From positions 21,131-85,130 of the forward strand of contig CAMKLV010000001.1 of NCBI GenBank assembly GCA_946413695.1: a stretch of 64,000 nucleotides of DNA. The letters are read 5' to 3'. The notes beneath the pieces were generated by a model. The model worked only from the letters and a program-made list of their open reading frames with translations. It was not told where the DNA came from and searched no databases. Shown one piece after another: positions 1,697 to 13,220 of this stretch. The translations under genes were made by a program, and so were the position numbers. The stretch comes from an uncultured Ruminococcus sp. (lineage in GTDB: Bacteria; Bacillota; Clostridia; Oscillospirales; Ruminococcaceae). Position 1 is the first letter of the stretch. Every line of letters starts with the position of its first letter.

Positions 1697-2419
1697 TTAC
1701 GGTCTGTGCTGTGTCTGGAGTGTATCTCTGGTGCGTGCAATGCTGTCCTCGCTGATCTGGATCAGATTCAGCAGAGAGGATGCGTATTCCGAGAAGTCCT
1801 TGGAGAGTGTCGCCGTGGTGACATACAGCGTCTCCGCATCTTCTACTGCATCATTTGTACCGAGTGCAATGCCGCTGGATGCCGCCTTGATATTGGATTC
1901 ATTCAGTGAAATGATCGCGTTCGCACTGTCATTTGCGACAACCTTCGGAACTCTGAACAGCTTTTGGTCATTGTGCGGGCACGCATTATAAATGATGCGG
2001 AACAGCTTGTAAACCGAAAGCATCAGATATGAGGAAACCTCGCGGATCAGCGTAACAGAGTTCGCGCGCTGTGAAAACGAGAACAGCAGGCTGATTGAGT
2101 TGTTGATGATCTTGCGGTAGAAGCGGATCGCCTCATTCGAGGGCATTTCGTTGTTCCCGTCATCATCAGGGATTTCCTCAAGCGTCAGCGTTTTGCCGCC
2201 CGGTTCCGGCGTTCTGCCGAGCAAATAGTCGCAGGACACGTTGTAATAATCGGCAATCCGGACCAGAAAATCAAGACCGCACTCACGGATGCCCTTCTCA
2301 TAGTGCGAGAGCAGTGCCTGTGAAATGCCGAGATCTGTGGCAGCCTTTTTCTGGCTGATTTTACGTTCCTTTCGCTGGAGCGTAATAATACGCGGAAAAT
2401 CGTCATTCATGGTTTTCAT
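1697..2419 (-). CDS. XRE-family helix-turn-helix transcriptional regulator with extended C-terminal domain
   Basis: HTH_3-like segment: ISQKKAATDLGISQALLSHYEKGIRECGLDFLVRIADYYNVSCDYLLG. Start trimmed to MKTMNDD after a GGGAG RBS; ATG 2410 is an alternative start. Confidence 0.7.
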   Translation of the reverse strand: MKTMNDDFPRIITLQRKERKISQKKAATDLGISQALLSHYEKGIRECGLDFLVRIADYYNVSCDYLLGRTPEPGGKTLTLEEIPDDDGNNEMPSNEAIRFYRKIINNSISLLFSFSQRANSVTLIREVSSYLMLSVYKLFRIIYNACPHNDQKLFRVPKVVANDSANAIISLNESNIKAASSGIALGTNDAVEDAETLYVTTATLSKDFSEYASSLLNLIQISEDSIARTRDTLQTQHRP

Positions 2420-2464
2420 ACTCCCTTCATCAATCGGACACAATACAGTCCTTCATACGTTACA

Positions 2465-2493
2465 ATTATATAACAAATAGTATAATTTGTAAA
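2465..2493 (-). promoter_or_regulatory. Sigma-A-type promoter for the XRE regulator gene
   Basis: Minus strand reads TTTACA, 17 nt, TATAAT. It lies inside an imperfect palindrome (TTACAATTATA 2460-2470 / TATAATTTGTAA 2481-2492) that also carries a TATAAT on the plus strand. Confidence 0.45.
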
Positions 2494-2587
2494 GACCTAA
2501 CAGCAAAAAATAACTGCCAAAAATGAGCTCTCATTTTTGTTGAATCCGCCGATTATCTCATATTATCACCCGAAAGGAACCATATTT

Positions 2588-3223
2588 ATGAAGAATTATC
2601 ACATTTCCCTGTTCCGTCACGGCAGAACAGACGCCAATGACCGCGGTCAGTACATCGGAACAACAGACTTTCCGCTGAATGACCGCGGCAGAGCCGAACT
2701 ACTCGATAAAACAGACCGCTATGTGTACCCGAAAGTCCAGCGTGGCTATACCAGCCCGCTGCAGCGCTGCACGGAGAGCGCCGAGATTCTCTTTCCGGAT
2801 CGCGAGATTGTTGTCGCAGAGGATTTCCGTGAGCTGCACTTCGGCAAATTCGAAGGCAGAACCGCCGATGAGCTGATGCAAAACGATGAATATCTCACAT
2901 GGATCCGCGGCGGCATGGATGCGAAGCCGCCGGAGGGGGAGAGTGTCTCCGAACTCTGCATCCGGACATTTCAGGGCTTTCACAAAATTCTGCTCGAGAT
3001 GATGCAGGAGGATTTCACGCATGTCGCAATCGTCACACACGGCGGCGTCATTGCAAATGCAATTGCCTGTTTCGGCATCCCAAAGCTCGATCCGAAGCAG
3101 ATTCAGACCGCCCCGGGCGAAGGCTTTGAAATCCAGATCAACCCGCAGATGTGGCAGCAGGCACAGGCATTTGAAATCCTGCGTGTCACACCGTACCTGC
3201 CGGAGGAAAGCGAAACATTCTGA
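2588..3223 (+). CDS. Histidine phosphatase family protein (phosphoglycerate mutase superfamily)
   Basis: MKNYHISLFRHGRTDANDRGQYIGTTDFPLNDRGRAE carries the RHG catalytic motif, with VTHGG near the C-terminus. Start trimmed to the ATG after GAAAGGAA. Confidence 0.8.
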   Translation: MKNYHISLFRHGRTDANDRGQYIGTTDFPLNDRGRAELLDKTDRYVYPKVQRGYTSPLQRCTESAEILFPDREIVVAEDFRELHFGKFEGRTADELMQNDEYLTWIRGGMDAKPPEGESVSELCIRTFQGFHKILLEMMQEDFTHVAIVTHGGVIANAIACFGIPKLDPKQIQTAPGEGFEIQINPQMWQQAQAFEILRVTPYLPEESETF

Positions 3224-3238: not shown

Positions 3239-3703
3239 ATGCTGGAAGTTGTCTTTACCGTCGCGATTATTATCGCACTGCTTCTGTTCTTTGGCATGTC
3301 ACTGGAAACCATATTCGTCATTTTCGCAACGATTGTACTCGGTCTGATCGCGATTGCAATGATGCTGTTCGTGCTGTTTTTTGTGATTACAGATATCTCG
3401 CTGCTGTTCCGGCGGCGCGTCAAGGGTGTCTTTCTGCGTGTGGATGACTCAGACCGCTTCGATCACGCTGTGTACGCATATGAAGATCAGGAATACAGCT
3501 GCGTTTTTCCGGCAGAATCCTTCGGCAGAAAGCATATCTACCATGAAAAGCAGGCGTACTCGCTGTTGATTTCACGGAATCCGAAGAAACACACTGCCTA
3601 TGATCGGCACAGCCTGATCATCATTGCAATCGGAACGGTTGTATCAGCCGTGATGGTTCCGCTGCTGATTGCCGCCGCATTATTCATCCGAACCGGACTA
3701 TAA
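3239..3703 (+). CDS. Hypothetical membrane protein
   Basis: 154-aa ORF with a GGGGGAG RBS. It has two N-terminal and one C-terminal hydrophobic helices. I recognise no family. Confidence 0.5.
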   Translation: MLEVVFTVAIIIALLLFFGMSLETIFVIFATIVLGLIAIAMMLFVLFFVITDISLLFRRRVKGVFLRVDDSDRFDHAVYAYEDQEYSCVFPAESFGRKHIYHEKQAYSLLISRNPKKHTAYDRHSLIIIAIGTVVSAVMVPLLIAAALFIRTGL

Positions 3704-3747: not shown

Positions 3748-4473
3748 TTATACGGTATAGCCGTCAGCGCGGAACGAATCAATCAGAGTGCCGAGAATCT
3801 CCGCATTTGTCGAAGAAACGGAGTGCAGCAGATAGACCGCGCCGCTGTGCGCTGCCTGCGAAAGCTGCCGGAGCGCCGAATCCGGATCAGGCTGCGCATC
3901 CGTGTTCCAGTCCACATGCGCAGCACTCCAGAACAGCGTCCGGTATCCAAGCGACTGCACCTTTGCAAGCGCCCGCGCATCATATTCGCCGCAGGGCGGA
4001 CGGAAATACTGCATCTCATAGCCGAAATGCTCCAGCACATAAGCATGCAGCGACATGATCTCCGTTTCGATTGCGTCATCATCCAGTTCCGGCAACGCAG
4101 CATGCGTCATGCCGTGATTGCCGAGCATATGCCCTTCGTCAATCATGCGCTGTACCAGCTCCGGTTCGCGCTTTGCGTAGTCGCCGGTCAGGAAAAAGAT
4201 TGCGGAGACATGTTTCTCTTTCAGCGTATCCAGAATCTTCGCAGTATAGCCGTTTTCATAGCCCTGATCAAATGTCAGTATGATTCTGTCCGGCTCAGGC
4301 GTCAGTGCATAGGCGCCGGATTCCGCGAATTCATCCTGAAAGGCAACAGCACCCGTCGGGCGGTTTTGTGCATCGCGTTCTTTGCCCTGCCCGTAGCCGA
4401 TTGCACCCGCATGAAGCGGCGGCATCGCAAGCATGACGGTCAGAGACAAAACGGCAGATAACAGTTTTTTCAT
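3748..4473 (-). CDS. pdaA: Polysaccharide deacetylase, PdaA-like delta-lactam-biosynthetic de-N-acetylase
   Basis: LTFDQGYENGYTAKILDTLKEKHVSAIFFLTGDY...GNHGMTH...RPPCGEY...LGYRTLFWSAAHVDW...AVYLLHSVSSTNAE is collinear with B. subtilis PdaA by eye. It has a signal-peptide-like N-terminus (MKKLLSAVLSLTVMLA). Confidence 0.7.
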   Translation of the reverse strand: MKKLLSAVLSLTVMLAMPPLHAGAIGYGQGKERDAQNRPTGAVAFQDEFAESGAYALTPEPDRIILTFDQGYENGYTAKILDTLKEKHVSAIFFLTGDYAKREPELVQRMIDEGHMLGNHGMTHAALPELDDDAIETEIMSLHAYVLEHFGYEMQYFRPPCGEYDARALAKVQSLGYRTLFWSAAHVDWNTDAQPDPDSALRQLSQAAHSGAVYLLHSVSSTNAEILGTLIDSFRADGYTV

Positions 4474-4534
4474 GCAATCATCCTTTCTGTTGCAGGGTAT
4501 ACCTGCGAAGATAGGATTTGCTATACAGTACGGT

Positions 4535-5068
4535 TTATGACCGGTTTGATCTGGCATCATGCGCGGCAATTGCAGGATAATACTTTGAGATAAATCCTGT
4601 AACATACGCAATTGCAGTCAGAACAGGCGGCAGCAGCAGCAGCATGCGGCGGCTCTGCGCAACAGCCGAAAACGGCTCCGCACCGGCGATCAGAAATCTG
4701 TAAATCTGGATAAACGGCGCATTCAGAAGCGGAAAGAGATTCAGCATCAGAATGCTCTCCGGATTTACTGTCAGCAGCAGATACGTCAGATAAGAGGGGA
4801 CAGTCAGGCAGATGCCGATCAGAAGCGGCTTTATGCGCCGTATCTGTGCACCTGATGTCCGGTACAGCGCGGCATCCTCATCCGCAGCCTTTTGCGCACA
4901 GTTTCCGATCAGCAGCACATGTGCCGCGATGCCGAAAATCAGCCCGATCAGGCGAATGACAGGATGATCGCGCAGAATCGCAAGCGAGACCGCCAGGATC
5001 AGGCACAGAACCTCAGAGCCGAACAGCCAGAGCATTCCGTGCAGCAGATGTTTTCCAAAATGATTCAT
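4535..5068 (-). CDS. Hypothetical polytopic membrane protein
   Basis: ORF trimmed to MNHFGK after a GGAGGAA RBS. It has about 5 hydrophobic helices. I recognise no family. Confidence 0.5.
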   Translation of the reverse strand: MNHFGKHLLHGMLWLFGSEVLCLILAVSLAILRDHPVIRLIGLIFGIAAHVLLIGNCAQKAADEDAALYRTSGAQIRRIKPLLIGICLTVPSYLTYLLLTVNPESILMLNLFPLLNAPFIQIYRFLIAGAEPFSAVAQSRRMLLLLPPVLTAIAYVTGFISKYYPAIAAHDARSNRS

Positions 5069-5223
5069 AGTTCCTCCGTGTATTTTGAGATACATCCGGC
5101 ATACTATCTATAATAATGCCATTTGCTATTATACATGATTTTCACAGGATTGTCCAGACTTTCGCCGAAATTTTGGAATCTCCGACGAAAAGCCGCATTT
5201 CACGTGCAGATCGGGCGGAATGC

Positions 5224-5292: not shown

Positions 5293-5946
5293 ATGGTACT
5301 TGCATCCATTTTGAACAGCGATCTGCTGAACCTTGCTAAGGTCGCGGATACCATCAGGGAATCCGGTGCGGATGCACTGCATTATGACGTCATGGACGGC
5401 AGATTTGTAGACAATATTTCTTTCGGACTGCCCGTGCTTGCATCGCTGCGTCCCTATACAAAGCAGCCGATTGATGTACATCTGATGATTACCGATCCGC
5501 TTCGCTTTGTTGAGCGCTTTGTCAAAGCGGGCGCAGATATGCTTTCGTTCCACATTGAAAGTGATTCCGATGTGCGCGAGACGCTTCGCTGCATCCATGC
5601 TTGCGGGATCCCCGCGGGTATCGCAGTATCTCCGGATACGCCGGTCTCTGCGGTCTATCCGGTTCTTTCCGATATGCAAAAGGATGATTATATTCTCCTG
5701 ATGACCGTTTATCCCGGACTGGGCGGACAGAAGTTCATGCCGCAGATTCTGCCGAAAATCCGTGAGCTTTCCGAATATCTGCAACGCGAACAGCTCCCGC
5801 TTCACATCGAAGTAGACGGCGGCATCAATGCAGAAACCGGCATGCAGTGCCGCAGAGCCGGCGCAGATTATCTGGTTGCAGGCTCCTATGTGCTCGGTTC
5901 GCAGAATCCGGCAGAGGCGGTGCGGTCTCTCAATGCGCCGCTATGA
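5293..5946 (+). CDS. rpe: Ribulose-phosphate 3-epimerase
   Basis: LHYDVMDGRFVDNISFG, IDVHLMI, SFHIES and HIEVDGGIN are characteristic Rpe motifs. RBS is GGAGGAA. Confidence 0.9.
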   Translation: MVLASILNSDLLNLAKVADTIRESGADALHYDVMDGRFVDNISFGLPVLASLRPYTKQPIDVHLMITDPLRFVERFVKAGADMLSFHIESDSDVRETLRCIHACGIPAGIAVSPDTPVSAVYPVLSDMQKDDYILLMTVYPGLGGQKFMPQILPKIRELSEYLQREQLPLHIEVDGGINAETGMQCRRAGADYLVAGSYVLGSQNPAEAVRSLNAPL

Positions 5947-6513
5947 CAGGCTGATATTCTGCTCTGCAATCTGCCTGACCGCATCCTGCTGCAGAATGCA
6001 GTCACAGTATTCCGATAATCTTGCGCGGTTGATTGCCGTGAGCCGGTAGGGGCTGCCGTATTCCAGCAGAATATGCCGGATTGCAGCAGCGCGTGCATGA
6101 CGCAGCTTCAGCGTCAGAATCCAGCTTCGGTTTTCCTGATAAAGCACACTGTTCCGGATATGCGCCTGCTCCGATTGCAGCAGCCCGCAGCATTCCTGCA
6201 GTAATTTCGCATCTGTGAATCTTGCTGCGAGCCTGATGATCCGCTGCCGGTTCGCACGCGGCGCCGGTGTGTGCTCCTGCACAGTGAAATACGCTGCAAG
6301 ACTCCCGTCCTGCGCAGTCATGAGTTCAACCGTCACCGGCAGCGCCGAAAACGCAATACCGCTGACCGATTCTGCCTTCGCAAGCAAAAAGGAAAGCATC
6401 CGCAGCATCTGCGGCGAATCCGCTGATACCGGATCCTCAGGCAGAAACACGCGCAGTTCTTCCGCCGAAAGCTGCACTTTGACGGAGCTCCCGGAAAGCC
6501 GGTGTATTGTCAT
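5941..6513 (-). CDS. mecA: MecA-family adaptor protein (short form)
   Basis: By-eye collinearity with B. subtilis MecA. The N-terminus MTIHRLSGSSVKVQLSAEELRVF resembles MEIERINEHTVKFYMSYGDIE. The C-terminal part IRNSVLYQENRSWILTLKL...ILLEYGSPY...ARLSEYCDCIL resembles LYSFENRYYLYVDF...ILLEYATES...LEEYGKLI. Confidence 0.55.
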   Translation of the reverse strand: MTIHRLSGSSVKVQLSAEELRVFLPEDPVSADSPQMLRMLSFLLAKAESVSGIAFSALPVTVELMTAQDGSLAAYFTVQEHTPAPRANRQRIIRLAARFTDAKLLQECCGLLQSEQAHIRNSVLYQENRSWILTLKLRHARAAAIRHILLEYGSPYRLTAINRARLSEYCDCILQQDAVRQIAEQNISLS

Positions 6514-6586
6514 ATCAAATATATCCTTTCTATGCGGCTGAACCGCCGTGTGTTTCATAGATTTGTTCAGCAAAGGCAGGTGCAAT

Positions 6587-7531
6587 ATGCACAAACCCGA
6601 TCCTAAGCGAATTCTGTTCGACCGCTTTGCATCAGTTCTCGCATTGCTCGCAGCTGCATCCTATGATTACGGTATCCGAATCTGGATTCTCGCTGCTGTC
6701 GCTGTTGCGATCACGCTCATCACAGAACGTATTTGTCTTGCAATCCGAAAAAAGCCTTTTACGGCTGAAAATCTCGATGCCGGCATCATCGGTCTGATAT
6801 TGCTTTTGCTGCTGCCGCCGGGTGTACCGGTTTCTCTGCTTATCATGTCCTGTATCTTTGCAATTATCATCGGCAGGCAGATGTTCGGCGGCAAGGAAAA
6901 TCCGGTAATTCTGCCTGCTGCCGCGGGATATTGCTTCTCGATGCTGAATAACCGTGCGGCTGTTACGCTGTTTCCGGAAAGCAGAGCGCATTTGCCGCTG
7001 ATCATTCCGGATTCCGCCGCACTGACAGACGGCATTTCGTTCGCTTGGAACAGAGCCGGACGCTTCACGGTCAATCCGCTCGAATGGCTCACCGGTCTGC
7101 CGCATCAGCCGATCGGGACAGGCTCTGTGATTCTTCTTTCAGCGATTGCAGTGGTGCTGGCCGCAAGACGGGCAGCATCCGGATGGGTGATTGTTCCGGC
7201 TGCTGTCACGATGATCGTCTGCAATCTTATGGTTTCCAATTTACAGCATCCGATGGCAACGGTTGTCGGCAGTATGCTGACAAACCAGACGCTGACCGCT
7301 CTGATCTTTCTGCACGCCGATCCCGATCATGCGCCGCCGCATCTTGCCGGAATCGCATACGGATTCGCGGTCGGGTTCGCTTCATTCTTTGCAACAAGAA
7401 TTCTCTTTATCTGCGATGCGCCGGTTCTGCTCGCGGTACTGCTTTCCCCGCTGATGATCTGGCTGCGGCGCGTTATGACCGAACCTGAATCTGCGAAAAC
7501 AGTCTCCGCGGAAAGGGGGACTGCTGCATGA
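6587..7531 (+). CDS. RnfD/NqrB-family membrane protein, divergent paralog lacking the FMN-attachment Thr
   Basis: NLDAGIIGLILLLLLPPGVP and FAIIIGRQMFGGKENPVILPAAAGY match the RnfD scaffold. The ...LTDGISFAWN... segment aligns with canonical ...GIDGISQATPL..., putting Trp where the FMN-bearing Thr should be. The SSPHIR-type N-terminus is absent. Confidence 0.7.
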   Translation: MHKPDPKRILFDRFASVLALLAAASYDYGIRIWILAAVAVAITLITERICLAIRKKPFTAENLDAGIIGLILLLLLPPGVPVSLLIMSCIFAIIIGRQMFGGKENPVILPAAAGYCFSMLNNRAAVTLFPESRAHLPLIIPDSAALTDGISFAWNRAGRFTVNPLEWLTGLPHQPIGTGSVILLSAIAVVLAARRAASGWVIVPAAVTMIVCNLMVSNLQHPMATVVGSMLTNQTLTALIFLHADPDHAPPHLAGIAYGFAVGFASFFATRILFICDAPVLLAVLLSPLMIWLRRVMTEPESAKTVSAERGTAA

Positions 7532-8097
7532 GTTCATCCGTGAAACCGCGCATATCAATTCTGCGCAGCGGGCTGATCATCGCTCCGATTGCGGCGTTTT
7601 CAGTCTCTGTTCTGCACAGCGCGGCTTTCTGTATCGCGTTTCTGCTGATCACAATCCCGACGGTGCTGCTTTCTGCGCTGATCCCGCGCAGAATCCCGTT
7701 TGCTGTTCGTATTGTATTGTATTCTGTAATCGGCAGTTTGGTGTATATCCCCGCGGCTGTTCTGACTGCAAACATCCTGCCGCAGATTGCAGGCGGTGTC
7801 TATCTGCCGCTGCTCTGCATGCCGCTCTATCTGACCGTTTATCGGGACGATCTGTTCCCGCGCGGACAGATTCTCCGCACGATGTTCCGCAATCTGATTC
7901 CGGCATGTCTGTTTGTGCTCGCTGCGGGATTTCTGCGCGAACTGCTCGGCAGCGGAAGCATCGTCGGCACGCAGCTGCTGAAAACGCCGCCGCTCCCGAT
8001 CCTGCTGGAGCCTTCCGGCGGACTGATTCTGCTGGTGCTCGCATTGGCAGCAGGTTCCGCAATCAGAAAGGAGGCACCCGATGCAGCTTGCCTCTGA
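7528..8097 (+). CDS. RnfE/NqrD-family membrane protein, divergent paralog
   Basis: ATGA overlap with the upstream gene. The C-terminal half (FLRELLGSGSIVG...LPILLEPSGGLILLVLALAAG) matches the RnfE pattern (LREIIGNGTLF...LLAMLPPGAFIGLGLMLAG). The LGLCP and TNCxxxGRAEAF motifs are not conserved. Confidence 0.6.
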   Translation: MSSSVKPRISILRSGLIIAPIAAFSVSVLHSAAFCIAFLLITIPTVLLSALIPRRIPFAVRIVLYSVIGSLVYIPAAVLTANILPQIAGGVYLPLLCMPLYLTVYRDDLFPRGQILRTMFRNLIPACLFVLAAGFLRELLGSGSIVGTQLLKTPPLPILLEPSGGLILLVLALAAGSAIRKEAPDAACL

Positions 8098-8638
8098 TTT
8101 CGCATTACTGTTTGTGCAGAATCTGATATTTCAGAATCTGCTTGGCCTGCCCTCTGCAGCCGTATCGCTGCAAAAAGGCAAAGGGCTCATCCGGCTCGGG
8201 GTTCTGACAACAATCTTCATCACCGCGGCATCCGGCGCGATTGCGCTGCTGCGTCCGCTGATCCCGAATCAGTATGAAAAGCTGCTGTTTCCGGTCTGCA
8301 TAGCACTGATCTGCGGCATACTGGATCTGCTGCTGATATTTGTATCAAAACTGTCGAAGCATCTGAACCGTATCATCATGCCGTCTCTGCATGCCGCAGC
8401 ATTTTCATCTGCAGTGCTCGGCGCCGTGCTGCTCAGCACGGATTATACCCACGATGTTCTTGTCGCATTCCGGTTCGGGTTCCGTTCCGGAATCGGATTC
8501 TTTGCAGCCTGTCTCATGCTGAAAGCCGTTGCACCGCTGATCAGCAGCGACGCGATGCCGAAAGCAGTCCGCGGCTGGAAGGGCATGCTGCTCTATGCTG
8601 CCGTGATCTCCATGGCAGCGGCATGTCTGTTCCCGTAA
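8081..8638 (+). CDS. RnfA/NqrE-family membrane protein, divergent paralog
   Basis: AGGAGG RBS. FALLFVQNLIFQNLLGLPSAAVS aligns with canonical [24 protein letters not shown], and FSSAVLGAVLL aligns with TNCAVLGVALL. Both Cys positions are substituted. Confidence 0.65.
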   Translation: MQLASDFALLFVQNLIFQNLLGLPSAAVSLQKGKGLIRLGVLTTIFITAASGAIALLRPLIPNQYEKLLFPVCIALICGILDLLLIFVSKLSKHLNRIIMPSLHAAAFSSAVLGAVLLSTDYTHDVLVAFRFGFRSGIGFFAACLMLKAVAPLISSDAMPKAVRGWKGMLLYAAVISMAAACLFP

Positions 8639-8665
8639 ACCCGAAAAGAGAGGAGAGAATCTTCC

Positions 8666-9937
8666 GTGAAACATAAAAAAAGAGGAAGAAAGATTTACAC
8701 CTATCAGGCGCGCAACCGCCGTGTATTCAGTGATTATCATCCGCTGCGGTCGGCGGTCGGCACTGTGCTGACACTGCTGATTGTTGCAGTACTCGGATTT
8801 GTCGGCTACAACGTAATCGGTCCGATTGTAACACGGCTGCACAAGGAGGAAATCAGCCCGACACTGACTGCGGAGCCGTACTTCACAGAGGAGCCGCAGC
8901 AGGGGACAGAGCCTGCTCCGGATGCTGCGCAGCAGACAACTGTTACAGAAGCCGTCACAACCACAACTGCACCGGAAACAACTGTCACTACCACAACTGA
9001 GGCGTATCACGGCAAATATGGCGATGACATGGATGTTGCATACATGGCACCCGCAGATGCGCTGCAGAATCTTGATTCTGTCGAATCCGCTGCAAAGGCT
9101 TGCAAAGAAAAGGGCTGCACATCCATGATTCTGCCGCTGAAGCTCAATACCGGTGTTTTACAGTACGCTTCTTCTGTTGATAAGGCGCTTGCCTGCGGGG
9201 CATCGAATGATTCCCTGCTGACGCTCCGTGAGATCGTCAATGCTGCAAAGCGCTATGATATCTCTTGTATCGCGGAGATCTATACGCTTGAGGATCACAC
9301 TTTCCCGAATTACTTTATGGAAGGCTCTTACGTATTCAAAGACGGCACAACGCGTTGGCTGGATGATAATCCTGACGAGGGCGGAAAGCCGTGGCTCAAT
9401 CCGTTTGATACTGCAAGCGGCGACTACCTGGCGGGAATCGCAGCGGAAATCCAGAAAAGCGGTTTCACGCAGATCATCTGCAAGGGCACAATCTTCCCGA
9501 GCTTCTTCCATTCCGATGCAGAACTGCTCGGCAATCATATAGAGGATCCGGCGCAGCGCCGCGATGCCCTGCTGTCCGTGCTCAACCGCATCTCGGATGT
9601 TGCACCGACCGCCGGACTGTACGCCGATCTCGCAGGCATTTCGCAGAACACTGAAGAGGCGTTCCAGCCTGCCGACCTGCATATGTCATCGGTCTACATC
9701 AATATTGATCCGGCTGCGTTCACAGAAGCGTTTACGATCGGCGAACAGCGGTTTGATCCCGGTGCGCTTGCGTTCCGCGAAAAGATCGAATTACTCGCAG
9801 AAGCTGCAAGAATCGCATCCGGTTCACATGTTGTGATTCCGTGTCTGTGCGTGAAAGACATGACTGACACTGAGATTGACACTGCGGTTGAGGTTCTTTC
9901 CGAAAACGGCTTCAAAACAATCTGCATGCATGAATAA
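8666..9937 (+). CDS. Membrane-anchored exoprotein, putative glycoside-hydrolase-like (GHL/DUF4015-type) domain
   Basis: GTG start after GAGGAG. Basic N-terminus, one TM helix (VGTVLTLLIVAVLGFVGYNVI), a Thr-rich linker and a globular domain of about 300 aa. The family call is from memory of similar 'putative glycoside hydrolase' proteins and is weak. Confidence 0.4.
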   Translation: MKHKKRGRKIYTYQARNRRVFSDYHPLRSAVGTVLTLLIVAVLGFVGYNVIGPIVTRLHKEEISPTLTAEPYFTEEPQQGTEPAPDAAQQTTVTEAVTTTTAPETTVTTTTEAYHGKYGDDMDVAYMAPADALQNLDSVESAAKACKEKGCTSMILPLKLNTGVLQYASSVDKALACGASNDSLLTLREIVNAAKRYDISCIAEIYTLEDHTFPNYFMEGSYVFKDGTTRWLDDNPDEGGKPWLNPFDTASGDYLAGIAAEIQKSGFTQIICKGTIFPSFFHSDAELLGNHIEDPAQRRDALLSVLNRISDVAPTAGLYADLAGISQNTEEAFQPADLHMSSVYINIDPAAFTEAFTIGEQRFDPGALAFREKIELLAEAARIASGSHVVIPCLCVKDMTDTEIDTAVEVLSENGFKTICMHE

Positions 9938-9940
9938 GAA

Positions 9941-9973
9941 AAAGCCGGTCTCCGCGCTCGGAGATCGGCTTTG
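9941..9973 (+). terminator. Intrinsic terminator after the Rnf-like operon
   Basis: AGCCGGTCTCCG-CGCT-CGGAGATCGGCT hairpin (one G-U pair) followed by TTTG. Confidence 0.55.
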
Positions 9974-10182: not shown

Positions 10183-10851
10183 ATGTCAGTAAACATCGCG
10201 ATCGACGGACCTTCGGGTGCCGGAAAAAGCACACTCGCACGCCGTCTGGCTGCAAATCTCGGCTTCATTTACGTTGATACCGGTGCGCTGTACCGGGCAA
10301 TTGCGCTCAGTATGCTGCGCCGGAACGCTGATACAGAAGAACAGATCATCGGCAGCCTGAAGGAGCTCGATGTAACACTCGGTTATCAGGACGGGGAACA
10401 GCATGTCTTCGCAAACGGCGAGGATGTGTCCGGACTCATCCGCACACCGGAGGTTACAATGGCAGCTTCTAAAGTTTCTGCAATTCCGGAGGTACGCAAG
10501 TATCTCTTTGATCTGCAGCAGAATCTTGCAAAAACAAATTCCGTTGTCATGGACGGCCGTGATATCGGAACCGTTGTGCTGCCGGATGCTGATGTCAAGA
10601 TCTTCCTGACCGCATCGCCGGAAAAGCGTGCTATGCGCCGCTATCTTGAAATGCAGGAAAAAAACATTGTCGGACAGACATATGAAGAAGTCCTTGCAGA
10701 TGTGATCCGCCGCGATGAGCAGGATATGAACCGTGAGATTGCGCCGCTCAGACAAGCGGAAGATGCGGTTCTGGTCGACACCTCAGACCTTGATCTGAAT
10801 GAATCTGAACAGCTGTTGCTGAAAGTATGTAAGGAGAAGCTCGAAACATGA
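10183..10851 (+). CDS. cmk: Cytidylate kinase
   Basis: IAIDGPSGAGKSTLARRLA P-loop, YVDTGALYRA and MDGRDIGTVVLPDA are typical Cmk motifs. RBS is GGAGGG. Confidence 0.92.
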   Translation: MSVNIAIDGPSGAGKSTLARRLAANLGFIYVDTGALYRAIALSMLRRNADTEEQIIGSLKELDVTLGYQDGEQHVFANGEDVSGLIRTPEVTMAASKVSAIPEVRKYLFDLQQNLAKTNSVVMDGRDIGTVVLPDADVKIFLTASPEKRAMRRYLEMQEKNIVGQTYEEVLADVIRRDEQDMNREIAPLRQAEDAVLVDTSDLDLNESEQLLLKVCKEKLET

Positions 10852-13220
10852 GTGGCTTTTATAAGTTTGCCATAGGTGTCATGCGGCTTGTCATGCCGTT
10901 ATGGTATAAAATTGATGCGGACGGGCTTGAGTATCTGCCGGAGGAAGGCGGTTATTTGTTTGTCAGTAACCACCGCAGCATGGCGGATCCGATCCTGATC
11001 GGCATTCAGAATCCTGCAGCGCAGTTCTGTTTTCTTGCAAAGCAGGAGCTTTTTGAAGACGGCTTTATCGGCTGGCTGCTCAAGAAGCTCGGCGCGATTG
11101 CAATCGACCGCGGAACCGGTGATACCGATCCGCTCGAGGAAATCATTTTCCGTCTGCAGAACGGCGATAACGCGCTGATTTTCCCGGAGGGTACACGTTC
11201 CAAAGACGGTACGCTCGGAAAATTCAAGACCGGCGCTGCACTGATCGCAGCACAGACAAATGTGCCTGTTGTTCCGGTCGGCATTTATTTTGATGATGAC
11301 GAGCTGCATTTCCGCAGCACAATTCATATTCGCTACGGTGAACCGTTCCGGATTCCGCAGACGGACCCGAAAAATCCGTCTCCTGCAGTTCTGAAGCAGA
11401 TCCGCCGCGAAATGACGGAAAATGTTTCCGCACTGCTGACAGCGGATAACGGATGGGGACCGAAAGCAATCGAAGTCAAAGAAAAATCCAGTTCAGATAC
11501 CGAAGAATCCGCAGAACCCGTGAAACGGAAATCAGCGGCTGAAAATCAGGAATCGGAGGGTACAGAAAAGAAAATGAGCAAGCACAATCAGAACGAAAAG
11601 AATCACAAGGAGAAGCCGGAAGAGGAAAAGGATATCTTCAAGGAAATTGAAGATGATATTGATGAGGAGATCTCTGATGAGATCGACGAAGCAGCTGAAA
11701 AGATCGAGGATGCTGCGGAAACTGTGAAAGAAACCGGCAAGAAGGCTGTTAAGGATACTGCCGACGCAATTGACGAGCTTGACGAAAAGGAAGAAAAGGC
11801 TGCGAAGAAAACCGCTTCTGCGATGAAGGCTTCTGCTCCGTTCAAAAAGCGTCTCAAGGAAGAAGACACAGAGCTTGATGAAAAGATCGCGGAGGACGAG
11901 GAAGATATCTTTGACGAGTCCAAGAAATCCGAGAAGGACGATGCACCGGAAACTGCTGATGAACCGGAAGAAAAGTTCTTTGAGGAAGAGGATTTCGATG
12001 AGGACTTTGATTTTGATGAAAAGCCCGGTCTGTTCGGCGGCTTCTCTCTGAAAAATCCGTTCAAGAAGAAAAAGAGCGTCGCAGATTTCGATGATGAGTT
12101 CGATGAGGACATCGACGAGGATAACATCGACAACAGCTACGAAGAAGATGATCTCGATGATGATGAGTATGATGACGAGGTTGTCGGCAGAAGAATCGAC
12201 TACGGCAAGATCGCTCTGATCCTGACTTTTGTCATTCTCGGCATCTTTGCAATTGACTTCCTCGTTCGTCTGTGGAAGGATTATCAGAACGCAAAGGGTC
12301 TGCTCGATCTCCAGAATCAGGCACAGGCAGTTGAATCCATGGTGGATTCCAGCCTTGCTGAAACGGATGTCGCACCGGCTGTTACCGAAGCGATCGAGAC
12401 ACTTGCAACAGAAGTTACCACAACCGTTTCTGCGGAAACCGCTGTCACCACAACCACCACGGAAGCTTTTGTTGATAACAGAGATACACAGACCATCGAG
12501 GTCGGAAACGATACCGTTCACTCCGGCAGCATGATCCTGATCGACGGCACACACGCACAGCTCAATACACCGGCACTCGTACCGTTCTCCAGCTTCCCGT
12601 ATCAGCATCTGCGTCTGGTCAGCACCGAAATGACTGTTGACGCTTCTCTTGCTACCCCGATCACCAACTGGTTCAACGATTTCTTCGCTGCAACCGGTCT
12701 CGGCAACGTGATGGTCTACTCCACCACCGGCACACCGGGCTATCCGCCTTACTCCGTTGCAATTCCGGAGCGTACCGCAGGTCTCTCGCTCGATCTCTCG
12801 ATCCTGAACGAGGCTGCTGCAAGCCACGCGCCGTATACGCCGGACGGCAACTACGCATGGCTGACCGAGCATGCAGCAGATTACGGCTTCATCGTCCGTT
12901 ATCCCGCAGGCAAGGCAGATAAAACCGGTCAGGAGGGCTTGACATGGCACTTCCGTTATGTCGGCGCACCGCATGCAAAGTACATGTATGACAATGATCT
13001 CTGCCTTGAGGAATATCTCGAGGAGATCAAGAAGCATACTGTCAGCACCGATCATCTGGAAACAACTGTAAACGGCATCAACTATGAAATGTACTATGTT
13101 GCTGCTGATACCGCAGGTACAACTACGCAGGTCAAGTATCCGGTTGCTGCAGACGGTTCCACACCGATGATTTCCGGTGATAATGACGGCGGATTTATTG
13201 TCGCTGTTGTGAAGCAGTAA
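10848..13220 (+). CDS. plsC: Fusion protein: PlsC-type 1-acyl-sn-glycerol-3-phosphate acyltransferase / acidic disordered region / TM helix / VanY (peptidase M15B)-like domain
   Basis: Single uninterrupted 790-codon ORF with an ATGA overlap onto the cmk stop. The N-terminus carries NHRSMADP (HX4D) and FPEGTRS acyltransferase motifs. Roughly aa 205-452 are E/D/K-rich low complexity. A TM helix (IALILTFVILGIFAIDFLV) follows, then a Thr-rich linker. The C-terminus AWLTEHAADYGFIVRYPAGKADKTGQEGLTWHFRYVG resembles the VanY core. Confidence 0.8.
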   Translation: MSGFYKFAIGVMRLVMPLWYKIDADGLEYLPEEGGYLFVSNHRSMADPILIGIQNPAAQFCFLAKQELFEDGFIGWLLKKLGAIAIDRGTGDTDPLEEIIFRLQNGDNALIFPEGTRSKDGTLGKFKTGAALIAAQTNVPVVPVGIYFDDDELHFRSTIHIRYGEPFRIPQTDPKNPSPAVLKQIRREMTENVSALLTADNGWGPKAIEVKEKSSSDTEESAEPVKRKSAAENQESEGTEKKMSKHNQNEKNHKEKPEEEKDIFKEIEDDIDEEISDEIDEAAEKIEDAAETVKETGKKAVKDTADAIDELDEKEEKAAKKTASAMKASAPFKKRLKEEDTELDEKIAEDEEDIFDESKKSEKDDAPETADEPEEKFFEEEDFDEDFDFDEKPGLFGGFSLKNPFKKKKSVADFDDEFDEDIDEDNIDNSYEEDDLDDDEYDDEVVGRRIDYGKIALILTFVILGIFAIDFLVRLWKDYQNAKGLLDLQNQAQAVESMVDSSLAETDVAPAVTEAIETLATEVTTTVSAETAVTTTTTEAFVDNRDTQTIEVGNDTVHSGSMILIDGTHAQLNTPALVPFSSFPYQHLRLVSTEMTVDASLATPITNWFNDFFAATGLGNVMVYSTTGTPGYPPYSVAIPERTAGLSLDLSILNEAAASHAPYTPDGNYAWLTEHAADYGFIVRYPAGKADKTGQEGLTWHFRYVGAPHAKYMYDNDLCLEEYLEEIKKHTVSTDHLETTVNGINYEMYYVAADTAGTTTQVKYPVAADGSTPMISGDNDGGFIVAVVKQ

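Follow-up and report, generated by a model that had tools for sequence, protein, structure and literature searches.

The genes analysed here form a closely packed group of four on the plus strand, at positions 6587–9937 of a 64,000 nt stretch of DNA from an uncultured Ruminococcus sp. (contig CAMKLV010000001.1, positions 21,131 to 85,130; hereafter the window). The first three encode homologues of RnfD, RnfE and RnfA, subunits of the Rnf complex, and are referred to below as D-like, E-like and A-like, or together as the trio. The D-like gene (6587–7531) specifies an integral membrane protein of 314 aa and overlaps the start of the E-like gene (7528–8097; 189 aa) by the sequence ATGA (7528–7531). 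The E-like gene in turn shares 17 nt (8081–8097) with the A-like gene (8081–8638; 185 aa). After a spacing of 27 nt, rather than the 28 nt given in an earlier reading of the sequence (the original prediction), a GTG start opens the fourth gene (8666–9937), which encodes a 423 aa transmembrane-anchored protein of the DUF4015 family (PF13200, 48 bits). Inspection of the open reading frames (ORFs) confirmed the gene boundaries and both overlaps of that earlier reading. The D-like start is placed at ATG 6587 because the homologues all begin with MHKPD, and a GTG at 6548 was ruled out on the same grounds. Good Shine-Dalgarno sequences precede the E-like, A-like and DUF4015 genes, and a sigma-70 promoter scan upstream of the D-like gene returned no match.

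The proposed descent of the trio from RnfD/E/A was borne out by profile scans, matches to solved structures and fold comparison. Pfam models gave 110 bits for the D-like protein (PF03116), 54.9 bits for the A-like protein (PF02508) and a marginal 24.5 bits for the E-like protein (PF02508, cut-off 23.8), and E-like orthologues at distant loci were unmarked PF02508 matches. All three proteins fall below the thresholds of the curated NCBIfam models, the D-like protein scoring 52 bits against a cut-off of 207 for TIGR01946 (rnfD), the E-like protein 20 against 213 (rnfE) and the A-like protein 42 against 229 (rnfA). In the PDB they match best the RnfD, RnfE and RnfA chains of solved Rnf complexes, and after these NqrD and NqrB. 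By phmmer, the E-like protein matched RnfE (7zc6_E, 3.3e-5; 9eri_E) and NqrD, and the A-like protein was closest to RnfA (9eri_A and 8ahx_A). An AlphaFold2 model of the D-like protein (predicted local distance difference test score, pLDDT, 81) has RnfD 9eri_D as its top Foldseek match (TM-score 0.77), with NqrB at about 0.7. Urea transporters (TM-score 0.45, E 0.03–0.2) and Amt (0.36) are more remote, much as they are for true RnfD. The former flavinylation loop is the low-confidence stretch of the model.

One cluster representative, P0033, is a natural fusion of a D-like and an E-like protein, which supports a putative physical complex of the two. Many D-like homologues carry long C-terminal extensions that have no Pfam match and are often charged or of low complexity, such as P0182 (496 aa, locus L029), P0224 (424 aa, L027; extended at its N-terminus as well) and P0199 (431 aa, L034). 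Others, P0049, P0072, P0074, P0102, P0130 and P0145, are 562–801 aa long. In the window D-like protein and ten long homologues, PF03116 was the only domain found, and the NAD-binding domain PF00175 was absent.

Cofactor and ion sites of the trio

The trio was followed across 35 loci, of which 25 are close (related Oscillospiraceae and Ruminococcus genomes) and ten distant, the latter with D-like proteins 23–45% identical to the distant reference P0039. Representatives in this distant range are about 25–35% identical to the D-like protein of the window. Ligand positions were aligned with canonical RnfD, RnfE and RnfA of two related genomes (L004 and L022) and with PDB sequences.

In Rnf, a Thr of RnfD (T156 in A. 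woodii) carries covalent flavin mononucleotide (FMN), and N123 together with D249 holds riboflavin (PMC12174285, PMC11889175). Aligned by hmmalign with the canonical RnfD of L004, the D-like protein has Trp154 (codon TGG, 7046–7048) at the position of the FMN-carrying Thr, within a remnant motif D-G-I-S-F-A-W in place of the canonical D-x-x-S-x-A-T. Among close members of the family the same column holds W, F or Y; further out it is mostly hydrophobic and not Thr. MAFFT prefers an alternative register, in which the canonical Thr stands opposite a Leu instead of Trp154, yet neither register places a hydroxyl residue at the FMN position. Among the 294 D-like proteins retrieved, the flavinylation motif was present in one, and that one is a true RnfD at about 105 bits. 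The Trp codon given in the original prediction is exact, and the loss of the Thr extends through the family.

The intramembrane [2Fe-2S] centre of RnfA/RnfE is bound by four Cys residues, each on its own inner half-helix (PMC12174285, PMC11889175), and all four positions are occupied by other residues in the window. In the E-like protein these are Ala19 (7582–7584) and Leu100 (7825–7827), the latter within a change of V-N-C to M-P-L, and neither position is Cys in any of the 29 E-like sequences. The A-like protein has Pro24 (8150–8152) at its first site, where G-x-C-P has become G-L-P-S (Cys in 0/28 A-like sequences), and Ser110 (8408–8410) at its second, where T-N-C-AVLG reads F-S-S-AVLG. It is only at this second A-like site that Cys persists in part of the family, in two of 20 close and six of eight distant homologues (8/28), and one of the four is the most that any homologous cluster examined retains. 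The losses hold both against canonical RnfD/E/A of related genomes and against the solved structures. Judged from these alignments, ligand loss is family-wide and independent of alignment register.

Several specific claims of the original prediction can be settled here. The Pro and Ser codons it gave for the A-like Cys sites are exact and agree with the alignments, as does its loss of the E-like Cys residues. It had also raised the possibility that a wrong register concealed conserved ligands; this was examined, and the canonical and PDB alignments confirmed the loss. Its description of the trio as stripped of redox cofactors stands for the covalent FMN and [2Fe-2S] sites and may go too far for riboflavin. 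Asp245 of the D-like protein (7319–7321) corresponds to D249 of A. woodii RnfD in alignments with the RnfD proteins of C. tetanomorphum and L022, and this Asp is conserved among close members of the family and most of the distant ones. The N123 equivalent is Leu109 in the window, and Asn is kept there in about half of the distant members. With its riboflavin-contacting Asp retained, the D-like protein may still accommodate a non-covalent flavin.

In A. woodii, RnfE R67, RnfE E115 and RnfA E88 form an ion-pair network at the cytoplasmic Na+ entry (PMC11889175). Arg61 of the E-like protein (7708–7710) matches R67 and is Arg in all 29 E-like sequences, and Asp107 (7846–7848) takes the place of E115 as acidic partner (acidic in 25/29). 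The RE-x-LG motif is likewise retained in the trio. The equivalent of RnfA E88 is Leu85 in the window, and the Glu is lost in 28/28 A-like sequences.

Conservation, gene neighbourhood and the DUF4015 protein

In an exhaustive profile search, counted as representatives of clusters formed at 50% identity, at least 66 scored below E = 1e-30 and 1031 below E = 1e-10. A profile scan of genomes reached only members matching two strict peptide patterns, and its 21 loci under-represent the family. Pairwise ratios of nonsynonymous to synonymous substitution (dN/dS) of 0.09–0.35 for all four genes indicate purifying selection, the E-like gene being the fastest-evolving of the four, and the overlapping ORFs are intact in the 25 close loci. 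Named sources belong to the Oscillospiraceae (NCBI taxonomy) except for one 'Eubacterium sp.' and one 'Clostridia bacterium' metagenome-assembled genome; this range is drawn from the few records that carry a name (Oscillospiraceae, Ruminococcus, R. champanellensis, Pygmaiobacter, 'Eubacterium sp.' and 'Clostridia bacterium'). The full cluster is present in one cultured species, Ruminococcus champanellensis.

The constant neighbour of the trio is rpe, the gene for ribulose-phosphate 3-epimerase (window 5293–5946, plus strand; PF00834), which lies directly upstream of it in L001–L004, in all close loci that reach that far and in 10/10 distant loci. D-E-A is intact in all ten distant loci, where the outer flanks are mutually unrelated and include, for example, genes for ATP synthase, a class A penicillin-binding protein, polyamine metabolism and two-component systems. 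In Oscillospiraceae the trio forms a conserved module of housekeeping type, whose place is always directly after rpe. Between rpe and the D-like gene of the window, on the opposite strand, is a gene for a MecA-like (ClpC-adaptor-like) protein (5941–6513, minus strand; 47 bits to the C-terminal half of PF05389) that overlaps the rpe stop by 6 nt. Its ORF extends to 6594, the likely start is Met28, and it is divergent from the D-like gene. The order MecA-like (minus) then D-E-A-DUF4015 (plus) is found in all close loci extending far enough upstream (L025 starts within the D-like gene), and the MecA-like gene shows dN/dS values of 0.08–0.23. A MecA-like or small minus-strand gene occupies the same place in four of the ten distant loci, MecA-like in L029 and L034 and small and unannotated in L026 and L031.

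No RnfC-, RnfG- or RnfB-like partner accompanies the trio in its operon, as originally noted, and none of rnfC, rnfG and rnfB was found within 7 kb of it in the ten distant loci. The survey of these ten other genomes shows a trio that sits without rnfC/G/B, and so does not always accompany them in the manner of a split canonical operon. Genes for FMN-binding PF04205 proteins were adjacent to the trio in no locus examined, and the only ones nearby belong to complete rnf operons about 7 kb away (L004/L017 and L022).

The DUF4015 gene follows the trio in six of the ten distant loci and, by a DUF4015 profile check, is absent from L030, L032, L033 and L035. The same check rejected a 352 aa gene after the trio in L035 as a divergent DUF4015 member. 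Where present, the gene comes directly after the A-like gene, with a gap of 12–130 nt except in L004/L017 and L021, and this adjacency spans D-like identities of 23–97%. The partnership with an exoprotein that had been predicted is therefore frequent, though missing from 4/10 distant clusters, whereas rpe, which the prediction did not mention, is universal.

The fourth protein comprises a basic cytoplasmic tail, a single transmembrane helix, a Thr-rich linker and an extracytoplasmic DUF4015 domain. The tail (KGRKIYTY..NRR.FS.YHP.RSA) and a G-Y...G-P motif in the helix stay conserved even between homologues only about 30% identical, which is what a predicted subunit contact would lead one to expect. 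This topology, with one N-terminal helix and the domain outside, is that of RnfG/NqrC, and RnfG is the subunit missing between D and E in the window operon. The DUF4015 protein is considered a probable subunit of the putative D/E/A complex. Its ectodomain was modelled by AlphaFold2 as a (beta/alpha)8 barrel with pLDDT 92 and a predicted template modelling score of 0.90, and Foldseek places it nearest to the functional region of Cwp19 (5oq2; E 7.6e-10, TMq 0.61), with Cthe_0052, beta-amylases, GH20 N-acetylhexosaminidases and dispersins next in order. The anchored exoprotein with hydrolase-like ectodomain of the original prediction is thereby upheld as regards its fold. An ectodomain sequence profile reached only the DUF4015 structure Cthe_0052 (4s1a, 3e-11) in the PDB, and phmmer with the full-length protein gave only spurious matches of the transmembrane helix to PsbY. 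Cwp19, an autolysin of C. difficile, is a peptidoglycan lytic transglycosylase (PMC6016235). In other proteins DUF4015 domains occur in fusions with YkyA domains, an arrangement shared with cell-wall polysaccharide deacetylases (PMC12700454). Four invariant residues, D106, D129, E157 and D180 (ectodomain numbering), are candidate catalytic acids.

The operon is followed by a terminator-like hairpin (9941–9972; 14-bp stem, -24.1 kcal/mol, z = -5.7). A terminator had been placed at 9941–9973, and the hairpin itself holds up; its plus-strand U-tract is short (UUUG), and a pattern scan assigned it to the minus strand.

At the left edge of the window, on the minus strand, lie a bona fide rnfC (286–1578, 371 bits) and the initial 94 codons of rnfD (1–284). 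This had been taken for the start of a canonical rnf operon, a description that the closest relatives do not support, as they carry rnfC-rnfD only. In L023 (82% identity), L005–L008, L014 and probably L001/L019, unrelated genes stand after rnfD where rnfGEAB would be expected, so that the neighbouring operon of the window's genome is probably rnfCD only. None of rnfG, rnfE, rnfA and rnfB was found elsewhere in the 64 kb window. Complete rnfCDGEAB operons are present in L004/L017 and L022, and because the trio coexists with them it is not a substitute or replacement copy. In the close loci L009–L011, L016, L020, L021 and L024, no rnf genes were found within 10 kb upstream. The RnfD flavinylation motif is (L/V/I)-T-R-V-T-P in L005–L008 and L023, and A-V-S-S-A-T-P in L014 and in the complete rnf operons. 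In the rnfCD-only genomes, rnfG is replaced right after rnfD by a gene for a conserved protein of about 215 aa (MKxITFxLPDELAxKFELA ... HGKVFEEHDGYITIWDRISDTLQKYRDFFE), found at 2014–2697 (minus strand) of L006 and 1973–2626 (minus strand) of L023, with equivalents in L005, L007, L008 and L014. The orphan RnfC-RnfD pair could provide a one-way electron path from NADH to the outside, or be a relic.

Several other genes near the cluster deserve mention. Upstream in the window, at 3748–4611 (minus), 4535–5095 (minus) and 3239–3703 (plus), are a polysaccharide deacetylase gene and two genes for small multi-pass membrane proteins, which accompany the cluster across the close clade and add an envelope-related flavour. 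Downstream, overlapping the end of cmk, a gene at 10848–13220 (plus) encodes a 790 aa fusion protein with a PlsC-type acyltransferase (residues 22–146), a long acidic low-complexity region, a transmembrane segment with Thr-rich linker and a VanY-type D-Ala-D-Ala carboxypeptidase (645–706 and beyond), an unusual union of lipid and peptidoglycan enzymes in a single protein. In L001 (11543–16972) and L004 (11559–16966), a gene between the DUF4015 gene and cmk encodes a protein of more than 2000 aa with an S8 peptidase, leucine-rich repeats and a dockerin, a combination pointing to surface display of the cellulosome type by these Ruminococcus-like organisms. The gene yajC, for a Sec translocon accessory protein, directly follows the DUF4015 gene in L027 (10864–11214) and L034 (10910–11263), in otherwise different contexts.

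Function of the trio

The trio is very likely not a functional Rnf electron path, since it has no FMN Thr, at most one of the four cluster Cys residues, no RnfG and no RnfB or RnfC modules. The reading we favour, with a probability of about 0.4 for the combined mechanism, is a redox-independent descendant of the Rnf core that handles an ion or solute and is tied, in most lineages, to turnover of envelope glycans. The D-like, E-like and A-like proteins would still assemble as a complex, in which the E-like/A-like pair would keep the alternating-access scaffold and the Arg-acid gate and move an ion or small solute. The D-like protein, with its fold related to urea and ammonium transporters, might be a scaffold or a second conduit. 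Alternating access by RnfA/E and the relation of RnfD to Amt and urea transporters have both been described (PMC12174285). The DUF4015 protein, with its N-terminal transmembrane helix and outside domain on a Thr-rich tether, would fill the topological niche of RnfG. The module would be linked to glycan turnover by taking up products released by the DUF4015 enzyme or, in an alternative coupling, ion flow or conformation of the core might be coupled to the activity of that enzyme.

Several observations weigh against this proposal. The hydrolase cannot explain the function of the core, because DUF4015 is absent from four of the ten distant clusters, and rpe, the sole universal neighbour, has no obvious tie to envelope glycans. 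Cwp19 is a moderate structural match (TMq 0.61, 12% identity), and the catalytic residues are candidates only. Canonical Na+ handling is doubtful, because RnfA E88, part of the A. woodii ion-pair network, is lost and the T-T-N stretch lining the Na+ site is altered in the window's clade. The retained riboflavin-contacting Asp, finally, leaves room for a flavin-dependent role.

That last point leads to a remodelled or split redox Rnf, in which the trio would use a non-covalent flavin, perhaps another metal centre, and partners encoded elsewhere, such as the RnfC-RnfD pair 5 kb away. Such an arrangement would agree with the riboflavin-pocket residues (the D249-equivalent Asp in the close family and most distant members, the Asn123 equivalent in about half of the latter), with the second-site A-like Cys kept in 6/8 distant clusters and with the presence of rnfCD nearby in the window's clade, where several genomes lack rnfGEAB. 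There is also precedent in an NqrB/RnfD-like subunit without the flavinylation Thr, for which a non-covalent flavin has been proposed (PMC11334425). It is nevertheless unlikely: three of the four cluster ligands are gone in every cluster and all four in the window, with RnfD as the partner there would be no need for another D subunit, and no FMN-binding, NAD-binding or ferredoxin-like partner was seen in or next to the 35 loci, barring the complete rnf operons of L004 and L022. Nor was rnfC or rnfD found within 7 kb in any of the ten distant loci, or within 10 kb upstream in the close loci listed above. A different alternative keeps transport and drops the wall, the trio being simply a secondary transporter or channel for some small molecule, such as a cation, a divalent metal required by the metalloenzyme Rpe, a flavin or a vitamin, with DUF4015 as a lineage-specific passenger. 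This is possible, if doubtful. It would account for rpe-D-E-A being universal while DUF4015 is missing in 4/10 distant clusters, and for the preserved E/A alternating-access scaffold, Arg-acid gate and riboflavin-pocket Asp, and it suits the relation of the RnfD fold to urea and ammonium channels (PMC12174285). The direct succession of A-like and DUF4015 genes across D-like identities of 23–97% speaks against a passenger, as do the strongly conserved tail and transmembrane helix of the DUF4015 protein, which argue for a real functional partnership, and no substrate-binding protein, regulator or riboswitch naming a substrate was seen at the loci.

A passive membrane platform, which would only position or stabilise the hydrolase or other envelope proteins, would be compatible with lost cofactor sites alongside kept helix-packing motifs, with the D-like::E-like fusion and with the conserved tail and helix of the fourth protein. 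It is improbable, as about 690 residues in three polytopic proteins under a dN/dS of around 0.1–0.3 exceed the needs of an anchor, the polar gate residues R61, D107 and R137-E138 are conserved, and the trio persists without DUF4015 in some lineages. Decay of an rnf duplicate into pseudogenes without function, which the original prediction had itself raised, might be suspected from the low scores against curated Rnf models and from the E-like protein, which barely passes its Pfam threshold and evolves fastest. The idea was rejected on selection and conservation data, and it has almost no standing: ORFs are intact and overlaps preserved in all those of the 35 loci that are complete enough, dN/dS is 0.09–0.35, the gene cluster persists in unrelated contexts at identities as low as about 25%, and the family numbers at least 66 sequence clusters (50% identity, E < 1e-30). 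A bolder proposal, and a rather remote one, sees the trio as a new type of energised envelope machine, derived from Rnf but without redox chemistry, in which ion flow through the alternating-access E/A pair would power conformational work on the RnfG-like tethered subunit and so switch a wall glycan hydrolase on and off; by analogy it would be likened to FtsEX, driven by ATP, or to the Mot/Exb/Tol stators, driven by proton flow. In a weaker variant, the family might preserve a transporter-like state ancestral to the Rnf/Nqr redox pumps.

The practical consequences begin with annotation. Public records treat these proteins as true Rnf subunits, under names such as 'RnfABCDGE type electron transport complex subunit D'. 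Metabolic reconstructions of gut and rumen Oscillospiraceae may thus credit a genome with Rnf, or with extra copies of it, on the strength of genes that very probably cannot support its chemistry, and in the lineage of the window even the true rnf operon may have shrunk to rnfCD. Rnf and Nqr are regarded as ancient pumps with a membrane core described as 'strictly conserved', cofactors included (PMC12174285), and a core kept without its cluster and covalent flavin is a natural experiment that separates the ion-handling from the electron-transfer parts of the scaffold. An energy-conserving redox pump seems here to have been turned into something else, of which the literature searched gave no earlier description. 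The recurrent pairing with a tethered Cwp19-like domain hints at an unstudied envelope function in gut anaerobes that are abundant yet poorly characterised, and offers a testable context for DUF4015.

Comparison with known systems

Literature searches returned no description of a D/E/A trio lacking its cofactor ligands, nor of its link to rpe or DUF4015. On the envelope side, FtsEX with CwlO/PcsB/EnvC is a transporter-family polytopic membrane complex that is genetically linked to an extracytoplasmic wall hydrolase. The likeness is one of analogy only, as FtsEX has no homology to the trio and uses ATP, and coupling in the trio system is hypothetical. Cwp19 and the DUF4015 ectodomain are both extracytoplasmic TIM barrels of Clostridia; they differ in family (GHL10, structure 5oq2, against PF13200; about 12% identity, TMq 0.61) and in attachment, Cwp19 being held by CWB2 wall-binding repeats, without Rnf-like partners, and the DUF4015 protein by its N-terminal transmembrane helix.

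The nearest described system is the two-subunit NQR/RNF-like system (Meheust et al. 2021, Huang et al. 2024; PMC8238504, PMC11334425), which likewise has an NqrB/RnfD-like subunit without the flavinylation Thr, encoded outside complete Rnf/Nqr operons. There, however, the D-like domain shares its polypeptide with the NAD-binding domain PF00175 and is paired with an ApbE-flavinylated NqrC/RnfG-like protein. The trio has neither of these defining partners, and its assignment to the flavinylated NQR/RNF-like systems was rejected on that account. The two-subunit system is found mainly in Actinobacteria and the candidate phyla radiation and is proposed to carry electrons outwards, whereas the trio belongs to Oscillospiraceae and includes E-like and A-like subunits.

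Among the classical pumps, NqrB, NqrD and NqrE of Na+-NQR are of the same superfamilies and have their cofactors at the same positions as Rnf, and NqrD and NqrB are among the matches of the trio. The trio is more distant from Na+-NQR than from Rnf, shows the same ligand losses against it, has no NqrA/C/F, and its D-like protein lacks the quinone-binding N-terminal helices of NqrB. The Rnf core (A. woodii 9eri, C. tetanomorphum 7zc6, A. vinelandii 8ahx) shares with the trio all three families in the same D-E-A order, together with RE-x-LG, A-V-L-G, the FGG loop, an ion pair of the RnfE R67/E115 type, the L103 gate and the riboflavin Asp. The trio differs from it in lacking the FMN-Thr and RnfA E88, in its [2Fe-2S] Cys residues (none of four in the window, at most one elsewhere), in scores 4- to 10-fold under the curated cut-offs and in an operon without RnfG, RnfB and RnfC. 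Its context is also its own, after rpe and usually before a glycan-hydrolase-like gene.

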